The notes under the pieces: model-generated
What the model saw: only the letters and a program-made list of their open reading frames with translations
Databases searched by the model: none
What the model was told of the DNA's origin: nothing
Assembly (NCBI GenBank): GCA_025839675.1
Contig: CP104013.1
Location: forward strand, 5,850,001 to 5,882,000
DNA: 32,000 nt
Reading direction: 5' to 3'
Source of the DNA: Candidatus Lokiarchaeum ossiferum
GTDB taxonomy: Archaea; Asgardarchaeota; Lokiarchaeia; Sigyniarchaeales; Promethearchaeaceae
Position numbers and translations under genes: made by a program
Shown: positions 700 to 28,797 of the stretch, in pieces
Position numbering within the stretch: the stretch's first letter is position 1
How the letters are laid out: every line of letters begins with the position of its first letter

Positions 700-720
700 T
701 CTTTTTTCTTTTCCATTTTT
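700..720 (+). terminator. T-rich tract directly after the ABC gene stop (archaeal-style terminator candidate)
   Basis: tcttttttcttttccattttt begins 1 nt after the TAA stop. Confidence 0.4.
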
Positions 721-765
721 CCCGAAACCTTTTTCATCCTTTACATCCAAATTAATGTACGGAAG

Positions 766-1525: not shown

Positions 1526-2146
1526 GTGATGCAAATGGCTGATATTCGCGCTTTTTTTGCAATTGAAATAGAAAATCAAGATACTCTTGAGAAAATTGGT
1601 AAATTCCAGCAAGAATTGCAGAAATCCATTGGTCCCTTAAAATTAGTGAAACCGGAGTTGATGCATATTACATTGCGGTTTCTCGGTAATATTTCAGAAC
1701 AGAATGCTCAAAATCTCCTTGAATTTCTTCAAAAGGAGATTAACTCTGTATTCTTTCCTCAAGGAAAAGTATATTCGAGTTTCTTTAAGGGGGTTGGTGA
1801 TTTTGGAAAGCGGGTGTTCTTTGTTAAGATTCAGGAACAACACGATTTCCTCCAAAAACTTAATTCCCTAATAGAAGCAAAACTAACCGAATTCTCTGGA
1901 ATTAAAGCTGAATCAAAACCATTCACTCCCCATTTAACAATTGCTCGTGCTAAAAGATCTCGCCATTCTTCTCGATCGAATCAAATTATTCATGCGAATG
2001 CAGTTCATCCTGGGCAGCTCCCCTATTCTGAACTAAAAAAAAATTACACCAATTATAGCTTTGGATTATGGACAATTACAAAAGTAGTATTAAAAAAATC
2101 GGTTTTAACTCCTCAAGGACCGATATATTCCAATTTTTCATTATAA
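1526..2146 (+). CDS. ligT: 2H-phosphoesterase, RNA 2',3'-cyclic phosphodiesterase / 2'-5' RNA ligase (LigT/ThpR family)
   Basis: Two H-x-T-x motifs at the expected spacing (HITLRFLG and HLTIARAK), about 200 aa. GTG start 1 nt after the upstream stop; ATG at 1529 is an alternative start. Confidence 0.8.
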   Translation: MMQMADIRAFFAIEIENQDTLEKIGKFQQELQKSIGPLKLVKPELMHITLRFLGNISEQNAQNLLEFLQKEINSVFFPQGKVYSSFFKGVGDFGKRVFFVKIQEQHDFLQKLNSLIEAKLTEFSGIKAESKPFTPHLTIARAKRSRHSSRSNQIIHANAVHPGQLPYSELKKNYTNYSFGLWTITKVVLKKSVLTPQGPIYSNFSL

Positions 2147-2159
2147 TTTTTGTATGTCT

Positions 2160-3131
2160 TTAAGGGTTAAGTGCTTTTTCCATCTCCATATCGTCTACCA
2201 ATAAACTTCGGAGAATTTCATAGATTTCGGTCGTTGAATGTTCGAAGAAATTAAATTGATCTATCACTACTTCTGGATCATGTTCTTCTAAGATTAATAG
2301 AATATAGAATTGCAATCCCTCAATATCAAAGGCTTGAATTAATCCCGAAATTTTGGTGAAAGCATCTAACCTATCACTAAATTCGTAGGAATTCATATTC
2401 TCGTCAACAATGCGACGTTGAGCTATTTCATATAATGTTAAGACTTTTTTACGCATATCTAAGGTGATATTTTCCATAAAATAACTTCCTAATTCGATCC
2501 CATTTTGCTCAAAGATCATTAGGGATATTACGTTTTCCATTTTACTGACCATATCAATAAGAAACTTCTGAATTGCCTCATTTTGAGAATACAGCAACTT
2601 TATTCCTTGGGAAAAGCCTTGAATAATAGTATGAATTTCAAAGATGTTGGTTTCAAAAAAGCGAATTTTGAATTTTTCCAACCATTGACGGACACGATGC
2701 TTCACAACGCCAACATTCTTACGTATTGTCGGATCTTGCTTCAATTTTGGATCCGTTTTATGAAGCATGATAACCACTGGCACATCCATATTACTTTCTT
2801 CAAAATATGCTAAGATTTTATCTAAATAACTTATTGATTCATCAAATCGTAAAGAATCCTGTATATCAACCACATAAAAGAGTAGGTCAATTCCACTCAA
2901 ATATCTAATCTTATGTTTAAGATATTCGTCAATATAATGTGCTTGACCGCCGAAATCATTCAGATAAATCAAATGGTCAAGGAATTGAAAAGATGAGCGA
3001 TCAATCTTCAAAGTTGGTTTTAAACCGCGTACAAAAGATGGTAAATCAAATTTTTGTTTCATACCTGTAATTATGCTAGTTTTTCCTGCGTTATCGAGCC
3101 CTAATATTGCCAATTTTTTATCTGATACCAT
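2160..3131 (-). CDS. Rag/Gtr-family GTPase with C-terminal roadblock-type domain
   Basis: G1 GLDNAGKTS, G2 KPTLK, G3 LNDFGGQ, G4 HKTD (His instead of Asn, as in RagA HKMD; nt 2751-2762). FFETNIFEIHTIIQGFSQ aligns with RagA FRTSIWDETLYKAWSS. It is followed by about 140 aa of alpha/beta domain (MIFEQNGIELGS vs RagA LLFERATFLVIS). I prefer the start at M11 (nt 3131), which has GGAG 8 nt upstream; the ORF extends to 3161. Confidence 0.8.
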   Translation of the reverse strand: MVSDKKLAILGLDNAGKTSIITGMKQKFDLPSFVRGLKPTLKIDRSSFQFLDHLIYLNDFGGQAHYIDEYLKHKIRYLSGIDLLFYVVDIQDSLRFDESISYLDKILAYFEESNMDVPVVIMLHKTDPKLKQDPTIRKNVGVVKHRVRQWLEKFKIRFFETNIFEIHTIIQGFSQGIKLLYSQNEAIQKFLIDMVSKMENVISLMIFEQNGIELGSYFMENITLDMRKKVLTLYEIAQRRIVDENMNSYEFSDRLDAFTKISGLIQAFDIEGLQFYILLILEEHDPEVVIDQFNFFEHSTTEIYEILRSLLVDDMEMEKALNP

Positions 3132-3196
3132 TTTAATTGCTCCAAATTCTAGATATTTCATAAAATACTTTTGTATTTATTTCTACAATCTATACT

Positions 3197-3287: not shown

Positions 3288-4277
3288 ATGAGTTGTGAAT
3301 TATTTGCTGATCGGTTAGTTGACCAAATTAAAAAGAAACAGTCCATTATTTGTGTTGGCTTGGATCCACGTATCGGAGAAAAATCCACCATCCCACAAAG
3401 TGTTTTAGATAAAGTAGGTCATGATAATAATGAAGCAATATGGGAATTTAATAAGGGAATTATTGATCATACCCATGAAATAACCCCAATCTATAAACCT
3501 CAAATTGCTTTTTATGAACAATATGATGCTATGGATGCCCTAAAGAGAACAATTGATTATATTCATGAAAAAGGCGCTTTGGCGTTATTGGATGCAAAGC
3601 GTAATGATATAGGTTCTACCTCTGGGGCTTATGCCAAGGCTGTCTTTGAGCACTTAGGGGCCGATGCGGTCACAGTAAATAGTTATTTTGGAATTGATGG
3701 CGTTGCTCCCTTTTTGAAATATATCCCTGCAGGAAAAGGGGTGATCATGCTGTTGAAGACTTCCAATAAATCAAGCGGAGAATTCCAAGATTTATTCTCT
3801 GTAGGGCTCAATGAAATTGGACCAGAAACAATAGAAACCACTGTTGATAAGACTACGCTTGCTCGCAATTATATTCACATGACCCGATTAATGGTAAAAT
3901 GGAGTGAAGATTCATCAATTGTTGGAGAAGGAAATGAATCCGGAAAGAGTGGATATTCAAGTTTAGGTGGTGTGGTAGGCGCAACCTATCCCGCACAGAT
4001 GAAGGCAGTAAGAAAAGAAGCTCCGCTTAATTTTATTTTAATTCCTGGGTATGGTGCTCAAGGTGGTACGGCTGCAGATATTCTTCACGGACTCAACGCT
4101 GATGGGTTGGGGGCGATTGTGAATGCTTCACGTTCCATTAATTTTGCCTATCAAGCTTCTCAATACAAAGATCTTTTCTCTCCCGAACAATTTGGGGAAG
4201 CGGCCGGTCAAGCTGCAAAGGATATGCAACACGCCATAAACCAAGTCTTGAAGACTGCTGGAAAAATTGCATATTAA
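3288..4277 (+). CDS. pyrF: Orotidine 5'-phosphate decarboxylase, type 2
   Basis: IICVGLDPR, LDAKRNDIGST and PGYGAQGG motifs, about 330 aa. Start placed at the ATG at 3288. The upstream 39 codons of the ORF are just a translation of the T-rich repeat. Confidence 0.85.
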   Translation: MSCELFADRLVDQIKKKQSIICVGLDPRIGEKSTIPQSVLDKVGHDNNEAIWEFNKGIIDHTHEITPIYKPQIAFYEQYDAMDALKRTIDYIHEKGALALLDAKRNDIGSTSGAYAKAVFEHLGADAVTVNSYFGIDGVAPFLKYIPAGKGVIMLLKTSNKSSGEFQDLFSVGLNEIGPETIETTVDKTTLARNYIHMTRLMVKWSEDSSIVGEGNESGKSGYSSLGGVVGATYPAQMKAVRKEAPLNFILIPGYGAQGGTAADILHGLNADGLGAIVNASRSINFAYQASQYKDLFSPEQFGEAAGQAAKDMQHAINQVLKTAGKIAY

Positions 4278-4297: not shown

Positions 4298-6133
4298 TCA
4301 AATTTTGGAAATTTCCATAACCATCCTCTCAGAAGTGCTATTTAATTCTTCCGCTCCTGCAGCGAGTTCTTCTAATGTTGCAGCCATTTCTTCTGCAGAT
4401 GAAGATAAATTTTCAGTAACACTTTGATTACTCTCAATAATTTTATTCATTTTATTTGTTTGAATCAAGGTTTGTTCCAATAATGTATCTTCCTTTTGGA
4501 TTTGATTTAAATTAGCTTGTATTGCTTGATCTGTTTGATTTATAATATCAAAGAGATTTTCTAATTTTAACTTGGTTTTTGAAATTGCTTGTCTTCCATT
4601 TTCTACAGAAGAATATGATTGTTCTGTATTTTCAATAGCAATATTGATTTCATCATGAATTTCATGAATTAACTCTCCAATTTGAGTAGCAGCAGTTTTT
4701 GAATCTTCAGCAAGTTTTCTTACTTGATCTGCTACAACTGCAAAACCTTTCCCTGCATCACCTGCACGAGCAGCCTCAATTGCCGCATTTAGAGCAAGTA
4801 AATTTGTTTCATTAGATATGCTTGCAATAATATCAATAATTTTTGTAATTTCTTCACTTTTTTTCCCCAACCTTTCCATTACAGCTTGAATTTTCCTGGT
4901 ATCATCCATAATTAGTGCGATATTTTCTGAAATTTCGATACTTAGATTATTTCCTGTTTTTGCCATTTCTTTTCCATTTTTAGATAAAGATGTAATATCA
5001 TTTTCTCTTGAAACAATATTTGCACTAATTTTTTTTATTCCTTCAAGCATTTTTGAGATGCTATGAATATCATTTGTCTGGTTTTGTGCACCTTTAGCGA
5101 CTATCTGAGAACCTTGGGAGACTTCCTGAATGGAGATATTTATTTGATTTGCTGAGATTGTAAATTGATCTGACATGGATGAGAGATCTTGAGCTATTTT
5201 TTGCACTTGTTTAACTAGTAGAATTGTTTGGGTGATATCCATGATAGTGACAAGATATCCTTGTTCAGTTTGGTTGTCTGAATTGGTTTGTTTGATACTG
5301 AGATAACCAATTTTTTTTTTTGTGTTTTTTGTTTTTAATTCAAATTGGAAATCTTGCAGTTCTCCTTCGTATTTCAACTTTGAAATCATTTCTGCATAAT
5401 CTTCACTATTCGTACAGATTTCATGGAATTTTTTGCCTAAGTAATCTTTTTTATCGAATCCCGAGAGATATTTTATAGAATCGCTGATATCTACTATGAT
5501 CAGATTGTTATCCAGAATTACAATCGGCGCTGTTGTGCTGTCAATTATTTCTCTAATAGAATTTTGCTGTGATTGAATTTTTCCTGCCATATCTTTAATA
5601 TTTCGTGCAAGTTCTCCTATTTCTTCCTTTCGGCTGAATATTGCAGAATCAATTTCATAATTAAAAAGGTTTTGGCCAATCGCGCTTGTGTAATCTCTAA
5701 TATCTAGTAATGGCGTTCTGATGTTTGACACAGTAAAGATCAAAAAAAGTACTATTAATCCTGCACCTAAGGTAACCCCTAAAATTATTACATCAAGACG
5801 ATAATCAAAAAGACTCATTATTAAGACTACATAAATCCCAAATACAATCATTGTAGCTATAGGTACCGATAATTTTCGAAAAAGACTTTGCTTGAAAAAA
5901 ATAAAGAAACTCGAGATAACTAAAATCGCAACGATCAGTACAATTTGCCCCATTGTTGGTGCATCAAGTTGGCTGTTTAACCAGGATGTATTATTAGTTC
6001 TTCGAATGTTGACAAATATTAGCAAAAGAAGAGCGGTGAAAGAGATTAAAAAAAAAGCGATGATCAATAATAGTTTACGGAGTTCTTTTATGGTTCTCCG
6101 TTGAGAAGGTTGGATTGTCATTTTTTTTCCCAA
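4298..6133 (-). CDS. Methyl-accepting chemotaxis protein (4 predicted TM helices, HAMP, PAS, MA signalling domain)
   Basis: Highly conserved hairpin tip [37 protein letters not shown]. Four hydrophobic segments in the first ~135 aa, then a HAMP-like [17 protein letters not shown] and a PAS-like segment [36 protein letters not shown]. Confidence 0.9.
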
Positions 6134-10791: not shown

Positions 10792-11358
10792 TTAATTATC
10801 TCCTCGTTTTCGAGCATCTACATAATTCATGAGTGTATTTATTAATTCGACAATCCGTTGTCGATTATTTTTATCAATGGCCACCATCGGGAAGGTAGGA
10901 ATTTGTAACACATCTTCAACCCGTTCAGGGGACATATGTCCTTGTAAGTCTTGTTTATTCGCTAAGGCGACGAGTTCACAACTTTCGTCAACCAAAGTTT
11001 TGGAATGTTCCAATAATTCTTTCGTTGTGAGAACATTTTTTGGTGTGGAGTCGGTGACAACAAATATAATATCACTTCCGTGCACATATTTGCTCAAATG
11101 TTGTTTAAGATATGCTTTTTGGCCTCCAAAATCCCAGAGACGAACATTTAATCCATCCAAATTTGTAGCTCCTAAATTAAAACCCATGGTAGGATTGTAT
11201 TTTCCTGAGATCAATTGTCCCCGCATGAGTTTGGTTAAAGTGGTTTTTCCTACCGCAGGTGTTCCAATAATGGAAATTTTTGCAGCAGGAGCTTGTTGCG
11301 ATGGTTTAAATGTAGAATTTTTAATAAAGGATTTAAATGTTGATTGCATGGTCATCAC
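10792..11358 (-). CDS. Arf/Arl-like small GTPase
   Basis: G1 GTPAVGKTT, G2 PTMGFN (Arf PTIGFN), G3 WDFGGQ (Arf WDVGGQ), G4 NKQD. The interswitch and IIFVVTDS are colinear with Arf1. It has a 25-aa N-terminal extension containing TFKSFIKNSTF. Confidence 0.85.
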   Translation of the reverse strand: MMTMQSTFKSFIKNSTFKPSQQAPAAKISIIGTPAVGKTTLTKLMRGQLISGKYNPTMGFNLGATNLDGLNVRLWDFGGQKAYLKQHLSKYVHGSDIIFVVTDSTPKNVLTTKELLEHSKTLVDESCELVALANKQDLQGHMSPERVEDVLQIPTFPMVAIDKNNRQRIVELINTLMNYVDARKRGDN

Positions 11359-14261: not shown

Positions 14262-14362
14262 TAGAAGTAGTCATTTTATTGGTTTTTTTCGAAGGTGTTT
14301 CCTTTTTCTCCCTTTATTTGGTCTTAAAATTTTTATGATTATAAGTGATAACTAACTTATTC

Positions 14363-15028
14363 ATGAAAAAAGAAGCCTATTTGCATCCACATAATATAGA
14401 CCAAAAAAATTTAGAGTGGCAAAATGAGCTGGTGCGAATCAAAACTCATTTTCCTTTTTCAATTAAATCCTCTAAAGTGGCATTACTTGTATTGGATATG
14501 CAAGATATCTTTTTAAATGAAGACTCGCATGCCTATATCCCTTCGGGTCCAAGTATTATACCAAATATTAAAAAATTGGTATCTACTTTCTCAGTTCAAA
14601 AGAGTTTGGTTATTTTCACTCGCCATCTTACTTCAAAAGATGAGCAAGATGTAATGTTTCGATGGTGGAGAAATCCGATACTTGAGAGTGATCCGATGTC
14701 GAAAATTACAAACATGCTTGATACTTCAAAGGCTAAAATCCTTCAAAAAAATCAATATAGTGCCTTTTTTTCGACCGATTTGAAGACGTTCCTTCAGAAA
14801 AAAGGGATTAAACAAGTAATAATTACCGGAGTGATGACTCATCTCTGCTGCGAAACGACTGCTCGCGATGCTTTTATGAATGGTTTTGAAATCTTTTTTG
14901 CAATGGATGCCACGGCTGCCTATACGGAAGAATTACATTTGGGAACTTTACGTTCCATCACTCATGGGTTTGGAAGATGTCTTCCTACAACAGAAATTAT
15001 TAAGTCATTTCACACCGAGGTATTGTAG
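14363..15028 (+). CDS. Isochorismatase-family cysteine hydrolase
   Basis: ALLVLDMQDIF (catalytic Asp region) and VIITGVMTHLCCETTARDA (nucleophile Cys region). Start placed at ATG 14363; the ORF opens at GTG 14345. Confidence 0.85.
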   Translation: MKKEAYLHPHNIDQKNLEWQNELVRIKTHFPFSIKSSKVALLVLDMQDIFLNEDSHAYIPSGPSIIPNIKKLVSTFSVQKSLVIFTRHLTSKDEQDVMFRWWRNPILESDPMSKITNMLDTSKAKILQKNQYSAFFSTDLKTFLQKKGIKQVIITGVMTHLCCETTARDAFMNGFEIFFAMDATAAYTEELHLGTLRSITHGFGRCLPTTEIIKSFHTEVL

Positions 15029-15038
15029 GGCGAAGAAC

Positions 15039-15929
15039 ATGGTGCATCCTAAAGAATATCCTGTTATCCTTATTGGTGCTGGTCCTGCTTGCATTACTGC
15101 TGCGATTCAATTAAAGCGTAGTAATATTTCATTTCTGATGATTGGAAAAGATCCTGGAGGGCTTATAGCAAATGCAAACTTGATTGAAAATTTATTAGGT
15201 TTTCCAAAAGGTATTTCTGGAGAAAATTTTGTGTCATTAATATTAACCCAACTAAAAAATCATTCAATAACAATACTCGAAGATGAAGTATTAGCCGTTG
15301 ATTATAAGGAAAGTAAATATTTTGTTAAAACTAAACAAAATCAGTTTGTTGGCAAGAAAATTATCATTGGAACAGGAACATTGCCAAGAAAGATGAATAT
15401 ATCTGACGAATCTCTCTTGTTTGAACAAAGAAAGCTCTTTTATGAAATTAAAAATACGATTCATATAAAACAACCTGAAAAATGGATCATTATTGGAAGT
15501 GGGGATGCTGCTTATGATTACGCATTAAATTTGGCTTCAAGATCGAATCATGTGACAATTTTACAAAGAAGTGAGTCATCTAAAGCGCTACCCTTATTGA
15601 TCAATCGTGTCCAAAAAATATCACAAATCCAAGTAAAATGCAATGTTTCAGTCCTAAAATTGGATCGAAAATCATCAAATGTGGTTCTCACTGTTTCAGA
15701 AGGTCATCAAGAAACCCTACTTTCTGCAGATCGCGTTTTAGTTGCCATCGGAAGGCATCCAAATACGTATTTTCTTTCAAACGATCTTTCAAGCAAAGTT
15801 GATGACTTAATATTGCAAGGATCACTTTTTATGGTGGGAGATGTAAAAAATAAGAGTTTTCGGCAAGTTTCAATTGCCATGGGGGATGGATTGTGGGCAG
15901 CTATGACCATTCTCGGCAACTTTAAATGA
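15039..15929 (+). CDS. Thioredoxin-reductase-like FAD/NAD(P)H flavoprotein without a redox-active CxxC
   Basis: FAD motif VILIGAGPACITAA, IIIGTGTLPR, NAD(P)H motif IIIGSGDAAYDYA, VLVAIGRHPNT, LFMVGDV. The segment where TrxR carries CAxCDG reads LFYEIKN. Start placed at ATG 15039, 8 nt after the isochorismatase stop. Confidence 0.75.
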   Translation: MVHPKEYPVILIGAGPACITAAIQLKRSNISFLMIGKDPGGLIANANLIENLLGFPKGISGENFVSLILTQLKNHSITILEDEVLAVDYKESKYFVKTKQNQFVGKKIIIGTGTLPRKMNISDESLLFEQRKLFYEIKNTIHIKQPEKWIIIGSGDAAYDYALNLASRSNHVTILQRSESSKALPLLINRVQKISQIQVKCNVSVLKLDRKSSNVVLTVSEGHQETLLSADRVLVAIGRHPNTYFLSNDLSSKVDDLILQGSLFMVGDVKNKSFRQVSIAMGDGLWAAMTILGNFK

Positions 15930-17147: not shown

Positions 17148-18719
17148 ATGTCTATTTTAAAGAAGGGTCCAGTTAAAGAATTAGAGAATAATTATCCAGA
17201 TTCACACATTTTAGAAGATTCTTCTGTGGAAAAGCATGATCTTTATAATTTTGAAGCAAAAATGGATTATCAACTTCAGAATATTCCAGTAAATCGATAT
17301 GAATTAGGGTTATACTTTTTTATACCCCGATCCTTACAAATAAATCCAACAAATTATTCAAGAGAAACATTTTATACGGATTTAAACAATTATATGCGGT
17401 TTAAAACACCTCAAATTGCCTTAAGTGGATTAATGAACGAAAAAAATGAACGTTCACCCTTTACCAAAATTAATGCTCATCTTGAAAACATTACCAATGG
17501 ATCGAAAAACCCACATAATTACAAAAAAATAGTAGATGAACTGAAAGTTTTAGGGTGTGTGGTTAATGTCTGTATTCGGGATCAAATTCAGTATTTTATT
17601 GAAAATCCGGAGTCACTTCATAATGAAGAAGAAGATTATCATCATTTAATGGCCTTTCTCGATCAAATTGAATTATTGCAAGAAAAAATGAAAAAATACG
17701 CCCAAGAATTTATTCTTGTTCAAATACCGGGCAATTTACAAGAAGCGTTCCGTTTTTCAGATATTTATATTAGTTCTCAAATAGAAAAACACATTTTAAC
17801 TGCAATTAAGAAATTTCAATCACAACCAAGATTCGATGAAACATGCAAACCTTTGGCCCTTAGACTTGTATCTAACGAGAAAAAACATCGAGAATTAATT
17901 GATAATTCCCTGGAAATTTCTAAAGATTCTTCTAATGAGAAATATTCATATTGGAATGGAATCTTGAAAAAATTTATTCAAAGTATTTTATATTTGGACA
18001 TTCGTCCAAGAGATAAGAAGTCCAAAGCACTTTCTGCACTCTATTCATTTGCAGCTGGAATAGCGATGTTTTTTTCAATACTTTTAGGGTTTTTAATCGT
18101 GGATCATTACGAACAAAAACCGTATGCATACATATCTGCTTTAATTATCGTTTATATTTTGAAAGATAAACTTAAAGATTCCATTCGCAATGCTTCAACC
18201 CGAATTATTGCTAAAGTGTTTCCTGATCGTCGTTTTGAAGTACATGATGGCTTTACGGATAATAAAATTGGTACTACTAAGGAAACAGTACGATTTTTAG
18301 AATGGGGGCAAATTCCTGCTGAAATTGTGAATATTCGGGAAGCTACAAATAAAACAACGCTAGAAAGAACTGGGAAACCTGAAATTATCTTGCGGTATGT
18401 GAAGAATGTAATGTTGAAAACCAAATCAATTCAAGAGTATCACTCACGACATGGAGACATTAATGATATTATTAGGTTCAATATCCGTCATTTTCTACAA
18501 TATGCGGATGATTCCGTTCAAAATGAAAATATCTGGGATGAAGACTCCCAAAAAATTATTTCAGTACCTTGTTCAAAAGTTTATCATATCAATGTGATTT
18601 TCAAAATTCGTTCGTTTACCAAATCTGATAAAGAAGGTGCTGTTTATTATAAAAAAGTACGTGTTATCTTAGATCAAAACGGAATAAAGCGCATAATGAC
18701 CTTGGATACTAAAGTATAA
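17148..18719 (+). CDS. Hypothetical protein, 523 aa, with a central two-helix membrane hairpin
   Basis: Long ORF flanked by 194-bp and 423-bp AT-rich non-coding regions. Hydrophobic helices ALSALYSFAAGIAMFFSILLGFLIV and YAYISALIIVYIL. N-terminal ~290 aa look helical and the C-terminal ~180 aa beta-rich. No family recognised. Confidence 0.5.
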   Translation: MSILKKGPVKELENNYPDSHILEDSSVEKHDLYNFEAKMDYQLQNIPVNRYELGLYFFIPRSLQINPTNYSRETFYTDLNNYMRFKTPQIALSGLMNEKNERSPFTKINAHLENITNGSKNPHNYKKIVDELKVLGCVVNVCIRDQIQYFIENPESLHNEEEDYHHLMAFLDQIELLQEKMKKYAQEFILVQIPGNLQEAFRFSDIYISSQIEKHILTAIKKFQSQPRFDETCKPLALRLVSNEKKHRELIDNSLEISKDSSNEKYSYWNGILKKFIQSILYLDIRPRDKKSKALSALYSFAAGIAMFFSILLGFLIVDHYEQKPYAYISALIIVYILKDKLKDSIRNASTRIIAKVFPDRRFEVHDGFTDNKIGTTKETVRFLEWGQIPAEIVNIREATNKTTLERTGKPEIILRYVKNVMLKTKSIQEYHSRHGDINDIIRFNIRHFLQYADDSVQNENIWDEDSQKIISVPCSKVYHINVIFKIRSFTKSDKEGAVYYKKVRVILDQNGIKRIMTLDTKV

Positions 18720-19142: not shown

Positions 19143-19868
19143 ATGGATGATAGTAAAGCAATAGAAGTTAATGATGGGATTTATTGGGTTGGCTTTTCTG
19201 ATGAAAATGCTGGGTTTTCCAACAATCCTTACTTACTAATTGAAGGAGAATCGGTTGTATTATTTGATCCAGGTTCTCGATTACCAGAACATTTTGAAAT
19301 TGTAAAAAAAAAAATTGAATCTGTGATACCGATTGAGAAGATCACTATGATTGTTGTTCATCATCAAGATCCTGATCTTTGTGCTTCAATTCCCTTATTT
19401 GAAGAAATCATTGGGGTAAATAATTTCGAATTAATCGCAACAATGCGTACTTCATTACTTTTACCGTATTATGGAATTCGAACCGAAATCACTACAGTTG
19501 AAGATGGAGATATTCTTGAATTGGATAATGGGAGAGAAATAATGTTTATTACATCCCCTTACTTACATTTTGCTGGTGCTCACGTTTCCTATGACATGAA
19601 AACAAAAACTATGTTTTCAAGTGATATTTTTGCGGCTTTTTCAGCTGATTGGAATTTATACGCAAATGAAAATTATACGGAGGCTATGAGAATATTCCAT
19701 GAGCCATATATTGCTCACAAATCGGCTATTGACAGTTTTGCTAATAAAATTAAAGATATTGAACTTAAAATGATATGCCCACAACATGGATCAGTAATTA
19801 AAGAAGAATCCATTTCGAGGTGTATGGAAGCGTTATTAAGTTTTGAGGTGGGATCATGGCTTATTTAA
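19143..19868 (+). CDS. Metallo-beta-lactamase-fold di-iron domain protein (flavodiiron-core / ODP-like), no flavodoxin domain
   Basis: IYWVG...NPYLLIEGESVVLFDPG, VVHHQDPDLC (FDP H-x-E-x-D-H position), MFSSDIFAAF (FDP lfscDaFG) and ICPQHGSVI (FDP P.HGp.). 241 aa, which is the lactamase-like core only. AAGGAG lies 10 nt upstream of the ATG. Confidence 0.65.
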   Translation: MDDSKAIEVNDGIYWVGFSDENAGFSNNPYLLIEGESVVLFDPGSRLPEHFEIVKKKIESVIPIEKITMIVVHHQDPDLCASIPLFEEIIGVNNFELIATMRTSLLLPYYGIRTEITTVEDGDILELDNGREIMFITSPYLHFAGAHVSYDMKTKTMFSSDIFAAFSADWNLYANENYTEAMRIFHEPYIAHKSAIDSFANKIKDIELKMICPQHGSVIKEESISRCMEALLSFEVGSWLI

Positions 19869-20179
19869 ACGATCAAAAATTGAAGGAATTTGTTGATTTA
19901 CTCGTGCTTCGTGGGTTAGGATTATATGGGCAAGAAAAAATGGCCGAAATCTGCTATAATTCAGGAATCGCTTTAACTGATAAGAATGAAATTGAATGGA
20001 TGGAAGACAACCACACAGTGGTTGTTGAAAACCTGCTAGTAAATTATGGATCCAAAAATCTTCCTGCCAAAATGACAGCGATTGTACTCGCTCGGCAACA
20101 TGCAATTCCAGTCCCTCAGGTTTTACTTGCAAAAAAACGTAATCGCCGCAGAAGTATTTTCAAACGAAGAAAGAGCTAA
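19856..20179 (+). CDS. Hypothetical small protein with a strongly basic C-terminal tail
   Basis: The ATG overlaps the upstream gene's end by 13 nt and shares the orientation of its neighbours. The tail is KKRNRRRSIFKRRKS. A competing antisense ORF was rejected. Confidence 0.4.
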   Translation: MAYLNDQKLKEFVDLLVLRGLGLYGQEKMAEICYNSGIALTDKNEIEWMEDNHTVVVENLLVNYGSKNLPAKMTAIVLARQHAIPVPQVLLAKKRNRRRSIFKRRKS

Positions 20180-20213
20180 TTTTTTTTCAATAAATAACAT
20201 ATAAGGTGAATTA

Positions 20214-21446
20214 ATGAGACAGATAGATAAGGTGATTATCTTTGATAATTTTGGGCTCGCAAAAGTAATGTTTGATTTCAATGAACATAAATTAATTGTG
20301 GATGAAGTTCTTCTTTCTGGATTTCTCAGTGCTATTGATGGTTTATCCCAAAGTATTTTCCAAGGCCAATCTTCTTATTTTATCATTGACAATGGTAATC
20401 AGAAGATCTCTTTATTCAAAAATCGAAATATTGTACTTGCTGCAATATCAAATGAATCCTTAATCGATTTCAAAGATCAGATGCATTCCCTTCTGCAATA
20501 TTTTGAAGAGAAATATGATATTACCCAAGATGAAGTTTTTGATAATGAGTTTTATGAGGAATTTCGAATTAAATTAATTCGAATACTATTTTTCTTGCCT
20601 ATTGCTCAAGATTGGATTCCTGTACTTAAGAATGACATGCCGAAATTGCCTTGGTTTCAACAACAATTTCCTTTGATGGAAAAAATTAATGGAAAAAAAG
20701 AAATCCAGAACTTTGAAAATTATTCAATAGAAATTAAAGAAGAAATTTTTGAAATCTTAAATTATGCATTTTTTGAGGATATTTTAACTTTTAAGAACAT
20801 AATTGAATCTAAAGATTATATTGTTGGCTCAGAAAAACTACAAAATCTATTATTGGGTAAATCCGATGAGTACAAAATATTAAAAAACCAATTTTTTAAC
20901 TTCAATTTGCTTAATATATGTAAAGATGTCCAGAATTATTCACGAATTTTAGATCTGCAAAGTAAATTTGGTGATAATGTAATTAATGTCATAGAAGAAT
21001 TGTACAATCTTGGATATATCACTTTGGTTGGCGATGAGATTCGAAAACTTCTAAACGCAGTTGATTTAATCGAAGATCTAATTATAGCATTTCAAAAAGT
21101 TGGAAGAAAAGGTAAAATTATTCCCGAAATCAAATTTTTTGTGGAAGAATTTGATGAACCGGAGATTATATCACGTTTTCAGTTTGACAAAAATCAAATA
21201 TCTCTCAATAAAGAAAACTTATTTGACATTTCGAACCAATTTCAGTCAACCAAAAAATCTGTCGATCTATGGTTGCACTTTGGAGAATTACTTTTAGATA
21301 AATTTTATTTAAGCTATGAGAAGAAGCTTAACAACATATTTCAAGATTCAATTCTGAATAAATACCTCTCGTGTCTTCATCGAGAAGACATGGCTATCTT
21401 AGATCCATTTTTATCTAAACTCGAAGCCTCATGTTTTGATGAATAA
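20214..21446 (+). CDS. Hypothetical protein with N-terminal longin/roadblock-like domain and helical C-terminal region
   Basis: The first ~100 aa show a beta-beta-alpha-beta-beta-beta-alpha pattern: VIIFDNFG, KVMFDF, LLSGFLSAIDGLSQSIF, YFIIDNGNQKISLFK, NIVLAAIS, FKDQMHSLLQYFEEKY. There is a possible wHTH near NVINVIEELYNLGYITLV. Confidence 0.45.
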   Translation: MRQIDKVIIFDNFGLAKVMFDFNEHKLIVDEVLLSGFLSAIDGLSQSIFQGQSSYFIIDNGNQKISLFKNRNIVLAAISNESLIDFKDQMHSLLQYFEEKYDITQDEVFDNEFYEEFRIKLIRILFFLPIAQDWIPVLKNDMPKLPWFQQQFPLMEKINGKKEIQNFENYSIEIKEEIFEILNYAFFEDILTFKNIIESKDYIVGSEKLQNLLLGKSDEYKILKNQFFNFNLLNICKDVQNYSRILDLQSKFGDNVINVIEELYNLGYITLVGDEIRKLLNAVDLIEDLIIAFQKVGRKGKIIPEIKFFVEEFDEPEIISRFQFDKNQISLNKENLFDISNQFQSTKKSVDLWLHFGELLLDKFYLSYEKKLNNIFQDSILNKYLSCLHREDMAILDPFLSKLEASCFDE

Positions 21447-21656: not shown

Positions 21657-23948
21657 ATGTCTCGCCGCGTAAAAATGACTGCTGATATTTTAAGACTGAT
21701 GGAAAATCCGCAACAAGTAAGAAACATAGGACTCATTGGACATATAGATCATGGTAAAACCACTCTTTCTGATTCACTTTTAGCGGAAGCCGGTTTACTC
21801 GCCAAATCTCTTGCTGGGGAAGCACGAGTATTGGACTATTTAGAAGAAGAACAGAGGCGAGGAATTACGATGAAATCGGCAAACATCTCTTTAGTCTATG
21901 AACACAGCTTATCTTCAGTAGATCCTTTTTTGATTAATCTTGTAGATACTCCTGGACATTTAGATTTCTCGGGAAAAGTAACTCGAGCCCTTAGAATTGC
22001 TGATGGAGTTGTGGTTATTGTAGACAGTGTGGAAGAAGTTAGTTCGCAAACTGAAACCGTTGTACGACAAGCTCTTCAAGAAGGTCTACGTCCCTTATTA
22101 TTCATAAATAAAATTGATCGCTTATTCAAAGAGTTGAAGTTGGATAGTGATGAAATAAAGAACAAGTTTTCAAGGATCATACAAGATTTTAATAAACTAA
22201 TTTATATGTACGGTGATGCTCTCGCCAAAGATCTTTGGCTCGTGTCGGCTGAAAAAGGGTCGGTGTTATTTGGTTCTGCATTACACAAATGGGGGTTTGT
22301 AATTCCTCAGTTAGTCCAAAATAAACATAATTTTGATTATTTTCAACACGCTTATGATAATGATACTTATCGAGCTCTTCCAAATCAATATCCTGTGTGG
22401 AAATCGGTGCTTGCGGCTGTAGTGCAATTCTTACCCAATCCTGTTGAAGCCCAAAAATACAGAATAAAAACAATTTGGAGTGGGGATTGTGGTACAGATG
22501 TTGGAAAAGCGTTATTAAATTGCGATCCAAAAGGTCCTCTAGTCATAGGGCTAAGCAAGGTACAAAAACTTAAGAATCGCTTGATTGGAACTGGTCGAAT
22601 TTTTTCGGGAACTCTAAAGAGAGGTCAAAGCGTATGGCTAGTGAATGGAAAAGAAAAATCATCGATAAATCAATTAAGTATATTTATGGGTTCTAGGTTA
22701 GAGAGTGTTTCTGAAGTTCCAGCCGGAAATATTGCAGCCATCGGTGGCATTAAAAAAATCCGGAGTGGAGAAACATTATTTGGAGTAAAGGCGAAAGAAG
22801 ATGCGAAACCTTTTGAGACAGTGAAATATGTCAGCGAACCTGTAGTTACTGTAGCAATTGAGCCCGATATGTTAAAAAATCTTAATCAATTACAAGAGAT
22901 TCTTGAGGAAATACAAGTTGAAGATCCTAATATTTCTGTGGAAATCAGTTCGGATTCTGGGGAGTGCCTTTTATCTGGAATGGGTCCTTTACATTTAGAA
23001 ATTGTAGCAAATACCATAAAAGAGCGTGGGGTTGAGGTGGAAGTTTCAAAACCGACCAGTGTTTTTCATGAATCTATCGAAAATATAAGTTCCTATCATG
23101 ACGCAACGAGTCCTAATGGGTTAAACAGTATTCGTATGTTAGTTATGAGGATGGATACTCCAACGGTCGCTTATTTACGGGGAGTTAAATCTCAAATTAT
23201 TGAAAATGATATATTGCGGGAACAAGAATTACCTCAACATACTAGTTTTAGTGTTTATGAATCTCGAGGGTTTTGGAATGTGGATAAATTTCAAAATGTA
23301 ATTATCTCCCGTTTGAAAGAAGATACTGGAATTGAGTATGATGACGAAGATAATGAAGTTTTAGAAAGTAAAACTAAGACATCAAAGAAGAAAAGTCGAA
23401 AAGGTAAATCTAAAAATGATCCTGAAGATAATCGACAAGTTCCCTTGGATATGCGAGGTCAAATAATGGAATCTATACATGGTATTTTATCTCATGGTGT
23501 AATTGCTCAGGAACCGATTTCAGAAGTAAAAATTGTAATTAAAGAAGTCAATTTAGCTAAAAATAGAGAAGATGCGAATTTCTTTGAAATTTCTACTATG
23601 ATTCAGGATGCTTTTATGGCATGCTTGCGAGAAGCACAACCTGTTTTATTGGAGCCCATTTATACTCTGATGATCGCTACTCCTGAAGAGTATATTGGCA
23701 CTGTCACTTCTCTTGTAAATCAGTTTCAAGGAAAAATTTTAGAAATAACTCAGGATGCCTTCAAATCTCATGTAACTGCTAAGATGTCCGTCCGTCAATC
23801 TATCGATTTTGCTCAAGAAATTCGAGGTCAAACGAGTGGCAGAGTATTTTGGCAAAATCTATTTGATAAGTATTCTCCCGTACCTGAACATGAACGTGAA
23901 TCAATCATTCAAGATATTAAATTTAGAAAAGGTTTAGCTTTTTTCTAA
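21657..23948 (+). CDS. Elongation factor 2 family GTPase, divergent paralog (EF-2p-like)
   Basis: Colinear with archaeal EF-2 from the N-terminus (MSRRVKM...VRNIGLIGHIDHGKTTLSDSLL) to the C-terminus (KFRKGL). G3 DTPGH, G4 NKID, YVSEPVVTVAIEP, GMGPLHLEIV. Both domain IV tip loops are diverged and there is a charged insertion (see findings). GAGGT lies upstream of the ATG. Confidence 0.85.
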   Translation: MSRRVKMTADILRLMENPQQVRNIGLIGHIDHGKTTLSDSLLAEAGLLAKSLAGEARVLDYLEEEQRRGITMKSANISLVYEHSLSSVDPFLINLVDTPGHLDFSGKVTRALRIADGVVVIVDSVEEVSSQTETVVRQALQEGLRPLLFINKIDRLFKELKLDSDEIKNKFSRIIQDFNKLIYMYGDALAKDLWLVSAEKGSVLFGSALHKWGFVIPQLVQNKHNFDYFQHAYDNDTYRALPNQYPVWKSVLAAVVQFLPNPVEAQKYRIKTIWSGDCGTDVGKALLNCDPKGPLVIGLSKVQKLKNRLIGTGRIFSGTLKRGQSVWLVNGKEKSSINQLSIFMGSRLESVSEVPAGNIAAIGGIKKIRSGETLFGVKAKEDAKPFETVKYVSEPVVTVAIEPDMLKNLNQLQEILEEIQVEDPNISVEISSDSGECLLSGMGPLHLEIVANTIKERGVEVEVSKPTSVFHESIENISSYHDATSPNGLNSIRMLVMRMDTPTVAYLRGVKSQIIENDILREQELPQHTSFSVYESRGFWNVDKFQNVIISRLKEDTGIEYDDEDNEVLESKTKTSKKKSRKGKSKNDPEDNRQVPLDMRGQIMESIHGILSHGVIAQEPISEVKIVIKEVNLAKNREDANFFEISTMIQDAFMACLREAQPVLLEPIYTLMIATPEEYIGTVTSLVNQFQGKILEITQDAFKSHVTAKMSVRQSIDFAQEIRGQTSGRVFWQNLFDKYSPVPEHERESIIQDIKFRKGLAFF

Positions 23949-23973: not shown

Positions 23974-24915
23974 TTATCTTAAAATACGATATTTTTTTTG
24001 AATACGCAATCGTTCAGTTAGGCTTGCGATTATGGGATCATCTCGTTCTTTTTCAGCTTCCAATATCCGTCTTTCTTCGTAGTTTCCCTCATGGAGCAAA
24101 CGATCAATTTGTCTTTTGGGCATTTTGAAGTCCAATTTGCAATAACTATGGGCAAGTTCTGCAGGTGATTTTTCATAATAAATTAGTAATTTTTCTATGT
24201 TTCCCATTTGTTCCCGATTGCTATAGAAATTATTTAATAGATTTTGTCCATAAACCGCCAATTGAAGATGTTTATAGTTTTCTTCTATGGAATTGAGAAT
24301 TGCCATGACATTTTCTTTGGTAATTCCATACAGACTTCGTATTGGATTTTGGTTTAATTTAATAAATGTGTCTGGATTCAGCTTCTTTGGGATTCCTTTT
24401 AAACTAGATAAATTGTTATGATCTAACTGAAGTTCAACTAATTGATCTGGATATTTTGGTAGATCTTCTAATAAATCTAAGTTGTTCGAATTTAGAAATA
24501 AGTGTTTTAATTTCGGGCAGTGTGCAGGAAAATAATCCGTTGATCTTAAGGCATTAAATGAGATATCAATAGATTCTACGTTTGGTAATCTTGGGGATAT
24601 TCCTTTGAGTGTTCTTAATCGATTCTGTTTAAGGTTGAGTTCAATTAATTTTGGCATTTCAGATGGAAATCCTTGTAAATCTGTCAATAAATTTCGAGCA
24701 AAATAGAATCCTTGTAAATTTGGTAGGTATTCTGGTAACCCCTGGAGTGACGTAAATCCTTCTTGCTCCTTTTTTGATCTATATCGTTGAGATCCTTCAA
24801 ATTCTTTTAAGAAAGGCATTTTTTTTGGAAAACCTTTAAAATTTTGGAAGTTGCTTGAACCTAAGTGGATTTCAACTGTTTTCTCATTAAAACTTTGGTG
24901 AGTTTGGTTTTCCAT
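23974..24915 (-). CDS. Leucine-rich repeat protein
   Basis: About 7 repeats of ~22 aa of the form L.G.P..LP.L..L.L..N.L..L (LQGLPEYLPNLQGFYFARNLLTDLQGFPSEMPKLIELNLKQNRLRTLKGI...). Helical C-terminal region. Confidence 0.8.
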   Translation of the reverse strand: MENQTHQSFNEKTVEIHLGSSNFQNFKGFPKKMPFLKEFEGSQRYRSKKEQEGFTSLQGLPEYLPNLQGFYFARNLLTDLQGFPSEMPKLIELNLKQNRLRTLKGISPRLPNVESIDISFNALRSTDYFPAHCPKLKHLFLNSNNLDLLEDLPKYPDQLVELQLDHNNLSSLKGIPKKLNPDTFIKLNQNPIRSLYGITKENVMAILNSIEENYKHLQLAVYGQNLLNNFYSNREQMGNIEKLLIYYEKSPAELAHSYCKLDFKMPKRQIDRLLHEGNYEERRILEAEKERDDPIIASLTERLRIQKKYRILR

Positions 24916-27213: not shown

Positions 27214-28797
27214 ATGGAACTTGTTGAAATGGATACAGAATTAGTCCAAGAATTCATTTCATTGTTTGAAAATGCAAACAATATTAACATTTCCACAATC
27301 ATTCAGAACCTTGGGATAAGTAGAAGTGAATTATTTGATTCATTAGTTTCATGGAGTGATTATTTTGATTTTTCAATTGAAGATGATCGAGTTTATGTAA
27401 AGAATTTATCATCTCTTATTCAAGCAAAGGAAAATGTTCTGAATAACTCAGTAAAAAATGCGTTACCGATTCATGAAATCTTTGAAGGTGCTCTTCTATA
27501 CCAAAATGTACCCCTTTATTCCAAAGAAACTCAATTCTTACAAATATTAGAACAATTAATTCAGACTCCTATCCTAGAATCAAGTCAAAATAATTTCTTG
27601 AATGGTTTTTATGCAGAAGGTGGTCATATCCTAAAGTTAGGGTTAAATCATCAATTTCTATCCCAATTACCAGAAAGTATCTCTGATCTTCAATATTTAA
27701 CTGAATTAAAGCTTGACAATCTCCAACTGAAGTTTCTTCCCGATTCTTTGGTCCATTTGTCCCACTTAACTCATCTTTCATTAACGAATAATTTTCTAAG
27801 AAGCCTTCCCAAAAATTTTGGGGATTTAACACAGCTTTCCAGTCTTTTATTAGATGATAATAATCTGGAATCTTTACCTTACTCCTTGATTCACTGCTCA
27901 AGTTTAAAAAATCTTTCTATCACTCGAAATAATATAAATCTTAAGGAATCTTTTGAAATTCTGCGAAAATTGAAACAAGATGGGTGTTTAATTGATCAGA
28001 AACAAGCTTTTAGATGGTCCGAAGTGGGTTATGAAGGTATTATTTGTAATTCCGGGTTAAAGCAAGATGATTTTGTAAATACAATTTTTCATCTTGATTC
28101 GATGCTTTCTTTTGAAGAACTTTGTGCTCAAATGGTTCTAGTGGAAAAAGAAGATAAGAGATTTGTAAAACCCGATGATTTCGATAGGTGGGACATTAAA
28201 GAACGTTCAATTGTTAAAAATATGGTTGATCCTGATGAAGATTATAGTTGGGCTCTATTCTATAATGATATTCCTCTTGTTAAGGATGAATATGACATTA
28301 TGAAATATCTTGAAGAATTGCTTGGTCTGCCCATTCCACCTGTTTCTTCAGTAGAGATGAAATTTGGATTTATTGCTGAAGAAGGACACGTTGTTGAATT
28401 AGGTCTTTATTATCTGAATTTAATCACCGTCCCTGAAGCTATAGTCTTATTGACCTCACTAAGGCATTTATTTTTGGGAAATAATCGTTTTTCATCAATT
28501 CCCTACTGGATTGGATGTCTAACTTCTTTGGAAATCTTAAATTTCCAACAAAATCACATTTTTTCAATACCAGATCTTTTTAGCAGTTTGACCAAACTAA
28601 CAAAATTGGATTTAAGTCATAACAGAATCCTCTCTCTTCCCAAATCTATGGAAAAACTAACCAATTTGAGATATTTGAACATTGAAGACAATCAATTAAA
28701 TTTAACAAAAAGTAAGGAAGCCCTTCAGAAAATTAAGCATAATGGGTGTTCAATTGATAGTATTAAGGCATTTAGAATGCGGGAAATAAGGAAATAA
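27214..28797 (+). CDS. Leucine-rich repeat protein with N-terminal wHTH-like domain and two tandem copies of a leader + LRR + cap module
   Basis: LRRs such as LPESISDLQYLTELKLDNLQLKFLPDSLVHLSHLTHLSLTNNFLRSLPKNFGDLTQLSSLLLDDNNLESLP, plus a second block VPEAIVLLTSLRHLFLGNNRFSSIPYWIGCLTSLEILNFQQNHIFSIPDLFSSLTKLTKLDLSHNRILSLP. Confidence 0.8.
   Translation: MELVEMDTELVQEFISLFENANNINISTIIQNLGISRSELFDSLVSWSDYFDFSIEDDRVYVKNLSSLIQAKENVLNNSVKNALPIHEIFEGALLYQNVPLYSKETQFLQILEQLIQTPILESSQNNFLNGFYAEGGHILKLGLNHQFLSQLPESISDLQYLTELKLDNLQLKFLPDSLVHLSHLTHLSLTNNFLRSLPKNFGDLTQLSSLLLDDNNLESLPYSLIHCSSLKNLSITRNNINLKESFEILRKLKQDGCLIDQKQAFRWSEVGYEGIICNSGLKQDDFVNTIFHLDSMLSFEELCAQMVLVEKEDKRFVKPDDFDRWDIKERSIVKNMVDPDEDYSWALFYNDIPLVKDEYDIMKYLEELLGLPIPPVSSVEMKFGFIAEEGHVVELGLYYLNLITVPEAIVLLTSLRHLFLGNNRFSSIPYWIGCLTSLEILNFQQNHIFSIPDLFSSLTKLTKLDLSHNRILSLPKSMEKLTNLRYLNIEDNQLNLTKSKEALQKIKHNGCSIDSIKAFRMREIRK

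Follow-up and report, generated by a model that had tools for sequence, protein, structure and literature searches.

EF-G and EF-2 dock with their body at the GTPase-associated centre of the ribosome (the sarcin-ricin loop and the stalk), and the tip of their domain IV enters the decoding centre. What might be the task of an EF-2 in which that tip has been rewritten? The question is raised by a gene of Candidatus Lokiarchaeum ossiferum, which lies at positions 21657–23948 of a 32-kb stretch of contig CP104013.1 (hereafter the window, to which all positions refer unless another locus is named). A first, sequence-only reading of the window had described its product as an EF-2 paralog whose GTPase core is intact but whose diphthamide site is missing and whose decoding tip is rewritten. 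By sequence comparison, the gene is identified here as the L. ossiferum ortholog of aEF-2p, an EF-2 paralog without a diphthamide site, and its product is probably (with a probability of about 0.8) a ribosome-dependent GTPase that is not a translocase. The paralog itself was already published in 2018; what is new here is an acidic-basic insert in domain IV, a quantification of the relaxation of that domain, the charge reversal of its tip, and the dN/dS values that show how the gene is selected.

The paralog and its family

The open reading frame (ORF) starts at an ATG and specifies 763 amino acids followed by a stop codon, as seen in the ORF list and its translation; the sequence-only reading had placed the ORF and every motif that it quoted exactly. 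The same protein is present in several independent assemblies of sequencing runs, and NCBI assigns the species to Promethearchaeota. The gene and the parts of its product, all on the + strand, are the following.

21657–23948 (+): aEF-2p gene; its product matches database protein P0001 ('Elongation factor 2' of the closed, published Ca. Lokiarchaeum ossiferum genome) at 100% identity
21657–22436 (+): G domain with G' insert, aa 1–260; Pfam GTP_EFTU, 1.6e-49
21738–21764 (+): G1 motif GHIDHGKTT, aa 28–36
within the G domain (+): switch I motif RGITMKS
21945–21959 (+): G3 motif DTPGH, aa 97–101
22107–22118 (+): G4 motif NKID, aa 151–154
22272–22286 (+): G5 motif GSALH
22524–22784 (+): domain II, ~aa 290–376; Pfam GTP_EFTU_D2 and EF-G_D2; a beta-barrel in the AlphaFold2 model
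22830–23048 (+): domain III, ~aa 392–464; Pfam EFG_III, 3e-19
23061–23636 (+): domain IV, divergent, ~aa 469–660; confident fold, Pfam EFG_IV unmatched
23109–23126 (+): tip loop 2, SPNGLN in place of SPNKHN, aa 485–490; Lys and His lost
23322–23441 (+): disordered insert in domain IV, ~aa 556–595; a gap in the HMMER alignment to 8hl1
23541–23588 (+): tip loop 1 (equivalent of the diphthamide loop), KEVNLAKNREDANFFE, aa 629–644; Asp640 at the position of the diphthamide His
23643–23897 (+): domain V, ~aa 663–747; Pfam EFG_C, 3.8e-19; dN/dS 0.013

The GTPase core is intact, with all of the G1–G5 motifs present, and GHIDHGKTT, RGITMKS, DTPGH, NKID and GSALH are invariant or nearly so among 118 homologs. 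Pfam, an AlphaFold2 model and Foldseek concur in a complete five-domain EF-2 architecture. The model, built from the 118 homologs, reached a mean predicted local distance difference test score (pLDDT) of 84.1 and a predicted TM-score (pTM) of 0.76, and its best Foldseek match was the EF-2 of Methanoperedens (M. nitroreducens) with GMPPCP (TM 0.81 and 0.85). When the PDB was searched with phmmer, the top match was the archaeal EF-2 8hl1 (E = 3.6e-164); given this value and the Pfam matches to GTP_EFTU, D2, EFG_III and EFG_C, the resemblance to EF-2 cannot be due to chance. Canonical archaeal aEF-2 (TIGR00490; 8hl1, 5h7j, 6u45) shares the fold and the domain order, and is 44% identical to the window protein in the G domain and 43% in domain III, but only 16% in domain IV; it has the diphthamide His, Arg and Gly and the Lys and His of loop 2, none of which is found in the window protein. 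The latter scored 612.5 bits with the NCBIfam aEF-2 equivalog model TIGR00490, below its cutoff of 738.45, and so failed the test for a canonical aEF-2; no Pfam match to EFG_IV was obtained at E ≤ 0.01. The claim of colinearity with archaeal EF-2 from end to end needs a refinement in domain IV, where EFG_IV is unmatched and an insert of ~38 amino acids interrupts the alignment.

The best 120 homologs of the window protein are 46–92% identical to it and most of them lack a Pfam EFG_IV annotation. The H-x-D-x-x-H loop was missing from all 47 of the top homologs inspected (the first 45 alignment rows plus 17 full sequences), and at least 118 database clusters of aEF-2p have an uninterrupted ORF. 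In a neighbour-joining (NJ) tree of 139 EF-2-family sequences (697 columns, 100 bootstraps), 23 sampled paralogs including the window protein were monophyletic in 99 of 100 replicates, the 14 canonical Asgard aEF-2 sequences in 100 of 100, and the long eukaryote-type sequences clustered with eEF2, far from aEF-2p. The window protein is 47–92% identical to its aEF-2p matches as opposed to 34% to the canonical Asgard type. Since it falls within the clade of His-less paralogs, separate from canonical Asgard aEF-2, it is by sequence and phylogeny a member of the aEF-2p family.

The canonical type entered the comparison through an exhaustive search of 50%-identity representatives, among which just one, the 750-aa P0173 (34% identical to the window protein), had a loop of the canonical Asgard type, HEDPRHTS. 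When P0173 was used as the query, at least 120 clusters were returned, 72–90% identical across metagenome-assembled genomes (MAGs) labelled Loki, Thor, Odin, Heimdall and Hermod; EFG_IV is annotated in 120 of the 120 clusters listed and the motif D[ML]xIHEDxxHT occurs in 111, the remaining nine giving no match in the motif search. This canonical Asgard type (HEDPRHT[S/Q/G]) belongs to the same superfamily and the same host organisms as aEF-2p, and both sit on long branches relative to classical aEF-2. It keeps the His at the diphthamide position and matches EFG_IV, while the window protein does neither, and it is far more conserved across Asgard classes but more diverged in domain III than aEF-2p. 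A scan of metagenomes with the aEF-2p alignment returned mostly canonical archaeal EF-2, the motifs chosen (DHGKTTLS and NLVDTPGH) being universal ones.

All of this agrees, feature by feature and with nothing essential differing, with the published description of aEF-2p as a second EF-2 found in most Asgard, some Korarchaeota and some Bathyarchaeota, in which G1–G5 are kept and HxDxxHRG and SPHKHN (SP(H/N)KHN) are not conserved, and which was judged unlikely to be a translocase and had no known function (Narrowe et al. 2018, Genome Biol Evol 10:2380, PMC6143161). The sequence-only reading had stated that EF-2 paralogs lacking diphthamide-site residues, of no known function, had been noted in Asgard and Korarchaeota; this was right, and the family is aEF-2p (PMC6143161, PMC10307638). 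Both EF-2 copies were present in all Lokiarchaeota examined (PMC6143161) and are present in all Asgard except Hodarchaeales (PMC10307638), the one Asgard group with dph genes and with just one EF-2, of the canonical type (Eme et al. 2023, PMC10307638); aEF-2p is found in Asgard lineages without dph genes (PMC6143161, PMC10307638). A literature search found neither later work on the function of aEF-2p nor an Asgard ribosome structure containing it.

Two eukaryotic members of the EF-2 family had been proposed as the obvious analogy. EFL1/Ria1 is a GTPase of 60S maturation that evicts eIF6 together with SBDS, and Snu114 is the GTPase of the U5 small nuclear ribonucleoprotein, with a non-translational role; archaea are not known to have a spliceosome. 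The comparison holds as an analogy, since EFL1/Ria1 is, as proposed for aEF-2p, a paralog of EF-2 in which the GTPase and the domains for ribosome docking persist but translocation does not, and Snu114 shares with aEF-2p the derivation from EF-2, the GTPase and the five-domain fold. It fails as orthology. That a GTPase of the EF-2 family lacking the diphthamide site occurs in the archaea closest to eukaryotes, and that Snu114 structures match the model with TM 0.72–0.75 in Foldseek, would suit an ortholog or direct ancestor of EFL1/Ria1 or Snu114, but this origin is highly improbable: the phmmer E-value for archaeal EF-2 compares with only 6.1e-64 for EFL1 (5anb_K) and 5e-60 for Snu114; aEF-2p lacks both the large insertion characteristic of EFL1, which arose by a separate duplication, and the N-terminal acidic domain of Snu114, whose phylogenetic origin is likewise separate; the eukaryote-type sequences lie elsewhere in the NJ tree; and published maximum-likelihood trees place EFL1 and Snu114 with eEF2, sister to Heimdall-LC3 aEF-2 and apart from aEF-2p (PMC6143161). 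The ranking of Snu114 above ribosome-bound eEF2 in Foldseek was rejected as evidence of kinship, as it reflects the inter-domain pose of the model.

Domain IV: tip, insert and selection

In the HMMER residue alignment to 8hl1, AKNREDAN faces HEDPAHRG, and the diphthamide His is therefore replaced by Asp, the Arg by Ala and the Gly by Asn. A joint MAFFT alignment with the canonical sequences gave the same register for the loop, so that both methods replace H-x-D-x-x-H-R-G by AKNREDAN and neither places a His-Arg-Gly at the tip of domain IV. The second loop reads SPNGLN for SPNKHN exactly where it had been reported. Loop 1 contains on average 0.04 His in aEF-2p (118 aligned homologs) versus 2.0 in the counterpart loop, and its mean net charge is −3.05, compared with −1.15 in canonical Asgard and −0.71 in classical aEF-2; for loop 2, taken over an eight-residue window (aa 484–491), the mean net charge is +0.18, compared with +2.0 and +2.4, respectively. 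Of the His and Lys residues with which the two loops would contact the decoding centre, none is left, and the tip is now acidic. The inspection of an AlphaFold model, suggested as a check by the sequence-only reading, was made: domain IV including its tip is confidently modelled (pLDDT ~88–95 in blocks outside the insert). The rewriting of the tip, claimed from the sequence, is borne out for both loops.

There is wide variation in the tip loops from one aEF-2p to another, and this bears on a ribosome-protection role of the kind played by Tet(M)/Tet(O), in which aEF-2p would dislodge an inhibitor. What aEF-2p shares with those proteins is that it is a paralog of EF-G/EF-2 and that the tip of its domain IV is not canonical, an analogy drawn by Narrowe et al. 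(PMC6143161). Such a role is nevertheless very improbable: the window protein scored 183 bits with the NCBIfam model tet_protect (cutoff, 775), and the gene is chromosomal, shows family-level synteny and has been inherited broadly vertically in Asgard. Contact with the drug site keeps the tip loops of Tet proteins conserved, but those of aEF-2p vary freely.

The insert, which is lineage-specific and had gone unmentioned in the sequence-only reading, comprises ~38 amino acids, in which the acidic patch EYDDEDNEVLE precedes the poly-basic KTKTSKKKSRKGKSK. Residues 571–590 have a pLDDT below 50 in the AlphaFold2 model, and the HMMER alignment to 8hl1 is split into two segments, with the insert left out between them. 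Most homologs of the Lokiarchaeum family have inserts of like character, of 36–60 amino acids, which differ in length and sequence yet are rich in Lys, Arg and Ser throughout. A second aEF-2p subgroup (P0023–P0039) carries basic inserts in the matching region, and the insert is absent from P0015–P0017 and from the group of 729-aa proteins.

The divergence of the copies was compared domain by domain in the joint alignment, with the following identities.

Within aEF-2p (mean pairwise): G 72%, II 60%, III 66%, IV 40% (39.6%), V 57%
Within canonical Asgard aEF-2 (mean pairwise): G 87%, II 77%, III 82%, IV 74%, V 78%
Window protein versus classical aEF-2: G 44%, II 36%, III 43%, IV 16% (15.6%), V 30%
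Canonical Asgard versus classical aEF-2: G 40%, II 34%, III 30%, IV 28%, V 34%

By this measure, domain IV is the selectively relaxed domain of aEF-2p and the only one to have drifted, while domains G, II, III and V are well conserved and strongly selected. Eighty-seven positions are conserved across aEF-2p, canonical Asgard and classical aEF-2, 55 of them in the G domain and two in domain IV. Six of the eight positions at which canonical and classical EF-2 are conserved and aEF-2p varies belong to domain IV, and they include K484 and H489 of loop 2 and H634 and D636 of the HxD. The two copies have diverged in a complementary manner, with aEF-2p keeping an ancestral-like body (domains G and III) but losing domain IV, and the canonical copy keeping the tip and diverging elsewhere, a pattern that fits subfunctionalisation.

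Compared with its 92%-identical congener at locus L166, the aEF-2p gene has a dN/dS of 0.047 overall, 0.077 in domain IV, and 0.14 in both the tip loop and the insert; with dS near 0.9–1.1, these ratios are approximate. The gene is under strong purifying selection and is not decaying. The strong divergence of domain IV and the loss of its key residues might have been those of a decaying duplicate, a pseudogene in the making, but this explanation is effectively refuted by the low dN/dS, even in domain IV and the tip (0.08–0.14), by the ORF being intact across the family's clusters, by the 87 positions common to all EF-2 types, and by the confident fold of domain IV.

A probable role on the ribosome

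In the mechanism we propose, aEF-2p would bind the GTPase-associated centre of the ribosome, contacting the sarcin-ricin loop and the stalk, and would hydrolyse GTP there. It would dock in the manner of EF-2, without translocating tRNA and mRNA, because the tip that probes the decoding centre is gone and what replaces it would be electrostatically repelled. Docking and GTP hydrolysis without translocation would make it a ribosome-dependent GTPase with a non-translocase job. Its origin would be a duplication followed by subfunctionalisation, in which aEF-2p kept the ancestral ribosome-docking body and took on a side job of the single ancestral aEF-2, and the other copy kept the tip and translocation. 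Precedents exist among the EF-G paralogs: Tet(M)/Tet(O) and EF4/LepA act at the translocase site with an altered or missing tip and do another job, and in this they resemble the proposed aEF-2p. EF4/LepA is, however, like Tet(M)/Tet(O) a bacterial family, and one without a domain IV and with a unique C-terminal domain, while the domain IV of aEF-2p is present and folded, and the lepA model gave aEF-2p 151.8 bits (cutoff, 533.9).

A canonical copy of L. ossiferum itself was not retrieved. None was found among the best 120 matches of either of two canonical-seeded searches, one with P0173 (HEDPRHTS) and the other with a profile of the divergent HEDPAHTG subgroup, nor was L. ossiferum, or JAIZWK01, a related closed genome, represented among the 70 GTDB Asgard loci that matched QINDTPGHISFTGEV as a degenerate DNA pattern. 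This is not evidence of absence, since the searches gave best-120 lists, the pattern demanded an Ile before NDTPGH where 53 of 120 canonical sequences have Leu, and 30-nt introns may interrupt the gene. It does mean that coexistence with a canonical copy would rest on other Asgard genomes and on the literature. Were aEF-2p the real, perhaps the only, translocase of the organism, an EF-2 with a rewired, diphthamide-free tip, this failure to retrieve a second copy would be accounted for, and the strong purifying selection on the gene and the greater closeness of its domains G and III to classical aEF-2, relative to canonical Asgard aEF-2, would suit it too. We regard this as improbable. At least 130 clusters of conserved, His-retaining canonical aEF-2 are spread across Asgard, Lokiarchaeia included; the literature has both copies in every Lokiarchaeota examined and in every Asgard lineage but Hodarchaeales (PMC6143161, PMC10307638); the reasons for the non-retrieval may be the trivial ones just given (the lists, the Q-I-N-D in the pattern, the introns); and the variable, acidic tip loops are unlike a constrained probe of the decoding centre.

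What the side job might be is a matter for more tentative statements. By analogy, the leading candidate, itself no better than possible, is the GTP-dependent removal of aIF6 from the 50S subunit, or the licensing of large subunits; aIF6 release is the side job of aEF-2 with the best documentation. The aEF-2 of S. solfataricus releases aIF6 from 50S in a GTPase-dependent manner, archaea having no EFL1, and in eukaryotes this release is the work of EFL1 as a dedicated EF-2 paralog (PMC8024482). Occupying, protecting or rescuing idle or stalled ribosomes is somewhat less likely, and something else altogether deserves about the same weight. If aIF6 were the substrate, aEF-2p might be an independently evolved functional counterpart of EFL1 that has taken over aIF6 release or subunit licensing, a speculative extension by analogy. 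A duplication in the Asgard and Korarchaeota lineages would then have left the G, III and V body with the paralog and freed the translocase copy to change (Arg to Thr beside the His, with diphthamide lost), and in the Lokiarchaeum family the poly-basic insert would serve as an extra tether to rRNA.

An alternative put forward by Narrowe et al. is that aEF-2p is a back-translocase or fidelity factor compensating for the missing diphthamide, which would act on the elongating 70S ribosome and not on the free 50S subunit. Its co-distribution with dph loss across Asgard and Korarchaeota would agree with this, as would the retention of domains II and III with their small-subunit contacts, and a precedent is EF4/LepA, a paralog of EF-G whose domain IV is altered or missing. 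Yet lineages without dph genes and without aEF-2p exist (K. cryptofilum, Geoarchaea; PMC6143161), and an acidic, variable tip has no obvious means of acting on tRNA and mRNA; such a role is rather doubtful.

Several points weigh against the interpretation of aEF-2p as a non-translocating ribosomal GTPase with a role in aIF6 release. For every aEF-2p, we infer ribosome binding, GTPase activity and the lack of translocase activity alike. The conservation of domains II and III, which make the small-subunit contacts in the 70S ribosome, does not favour a purely 50S-based role, and the correlation with dph loss points to translation elongation instead of biogenesis. Gene context gives no functional hint, as the neighbours differ between lineages. 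Neighbour joining is a simple distance method, and the deep nodes of the tree are unreliable. To these are added the non-retrieval of a canonical copy from L. ossiferum and from the GTDB loci, and the resulting dependence on other genomes, as set out above.

Gene surroundings, canonical aEF-2 loci and meaning

The 32-kb window has a G+C content of ~33%, which fits the assigned species, and contains no ribosomal-protein, EF-1alpha, aIF6 or SBDS genes, so that the sequence-only reading was correct in noting that aEF-2p is not adjacent to ribosomal-protein or EF-1alpha genes; nor are there dph genes within it, and no hits were obtained when it was scanned with Rfam and for tRNA genes. The position outside a ribosomal operon does not discriminate between the types, since canonical Asgard aEF-2 was also outside in the two loci (of two) checked. 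No genes for translation, ribosome biogenesis, aIF6 or SBDS were found beside aEF-2p in 11 homolog loci or in the look-up of the window protein itself.

Upstream of aEF-2p, the gene at 17148–18719 (+) encodes a 523-aa protein without a Pfam match, in which hydrophobic, possibly membrane-spanning stretches are apparent by eye. Homologs of this protein (~490–545 aa, 43–47% identical) lie directly upstream and on the same strand in most aEF-2p loci of the Lokiarchaeum family (L071, L075, L078, L079 and L080, with partial ORFs at contig edges in L076 and L081), and one gene away in L074 and L166. The linkage could reflect co-transcription or just family-level synteny. In the window, the two genes are separated by a variable cassette (19143–21446, +) holding an ODP-family metallo-beta-lactamase-fold protein, a 107-aa ORF and a 410-aa protein without a Pfam match; in L166, a single methyltransferase gene occupies its place and both flanks are collinear. 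At two other loci, a PurN-like formyltransferase gene (Formyl_trans_N) lies directly upstream of aEF-2p on the same strand (L082, 7114–7746, +; L085, 404–1021, +). The two PurN-like copies are 61% identical to each other, and the loci represent two different aEF-2p lineages, the aEF-2p proteins being 47% and 52% identical, respectively, to the window protein; the PurN-like gene was not seen at the other aEF-2p loci among the 11 homolog loci examined. As clues to function, both the 523-aa gene and the PurN-like gene were rejected as too weak.

The flanks of the window hold leucine-rich-repeat (LRR) proteins, two of which flank the aEF-2p region, small GTPases of the Arf/Roc and Rag types, and metabolic genes. 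Such a content of GTPase, LRR and LigT-like genes is typical of Asgard genomes and ordinary for L. ossiferum.

1526–2146 (+): LigT-like 2',5' RNA ligase/phosphoesterase
2160–3161 (−): Gtr1/RagA-type GTPase
10792–11358 (−): Arf/Roc-type small GTPase
23974–24915 (−): LRR protein
27214–28797 (+): LRR protein

An isochorismatase ORF (14345–15028, +) and a pyridine-nucleotide-disulphide oxidoreductase ORF (14880–15929, +) are listed with an overlap of 149 nt; the listed start of the oxidoreductase ORF is probably too far upstream.

Outside the window, the canonical Asgard aEF-2 genes have peculiarities of their own. Their proteins (P0173, P0270–P0406) mostly lack a Pfam GTP_EFTU_D2 annotation, and their stem branch in the NJ tree is long (0.6). 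In seven of the 70 GTDB Asgard MAG loci, insertions of 30–31 nt interrupt the first ~70 codons, within the P-loop and the codons preceding switch I, and contain stop codons or shift the frame. They are found at five sites (AH^ID, AHID^HG, HG^K, TD^SD and DSD^EEE), in the following loci.

L022, ~3800–3830 (+): insertion
L021, ~5335–5365 (−): insertion
L009, ~710–740 (+): insertion
L025, ~43–72 (+): insertion
L048 (−), L056 (+) and L068 (−): further insertions

In six of the seven, exon 1 ends in four nucleotides followed by a 2-nt overhang, and these four are fully complementary to positions −6 to −3 of the insertion. The resulting 4-bp helix has 3-nt bulges on either side and an adjacent inner hairpin of 5–9 bp, the canonical bulge-helix-bulge (BHB) geometry of RNAs cleaved by the archaeal splicing endonuclease; removal of the insertion at the bulges brings the conserved frame back exactly in these six. 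Judging by sequence and predicted pairing, the insertions resemble mini-introns that the tRNA-splicing endonuclease would remove from an essential mRNA. Their presence would explain ~25 database clusters of canonical aEF-2 ORFs of '702 aa', which begin with MR(E/P)EDAGQLQ and lack the P-loop. A full-text literature search found no paper on BHB introns in Asgard protein-coding genes. Several classical-type aEF-2 representatives (P0123, P0135, P0137–P0141, P0150, P0152 and P0157) are 916–1233 aa long, their EF-2 match beginning only after ~215–540 extra residues, at or past the P-loop. These residues are probably inteins, in which case the inteins of other archaea and the mini-introns of Asgard would share a hot spot, the P-loop region. 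In ~10 loci, a second translational-GTPase G-domain match (query aa ~26–258) lies ~3–5 kb from the canonical aEF-2 (L006, L012, L016, L023, L034, L038, L053, L054, L061 and L070).

The function of aEF-2p matters because this is a conserved, strongly selected GTPase of the ribosomal type in the archaea closest to eukaryotes, which apparently translate without diphthamide, and aEF-2p was used in 2023 as a marker that separates Hodarchaeales from other Asgard. Few Asgard archaea have been cultured, and L. ossiferum is among them, which in principle makes the question approachable beyond metagenomics, and the domain-by-domain pattern of divergence turns it into a concrete hypothesis of subfunctionalisation, in which a paralog that has given up the decoding-centre tip may have kept the ribosome-docking body for another task.

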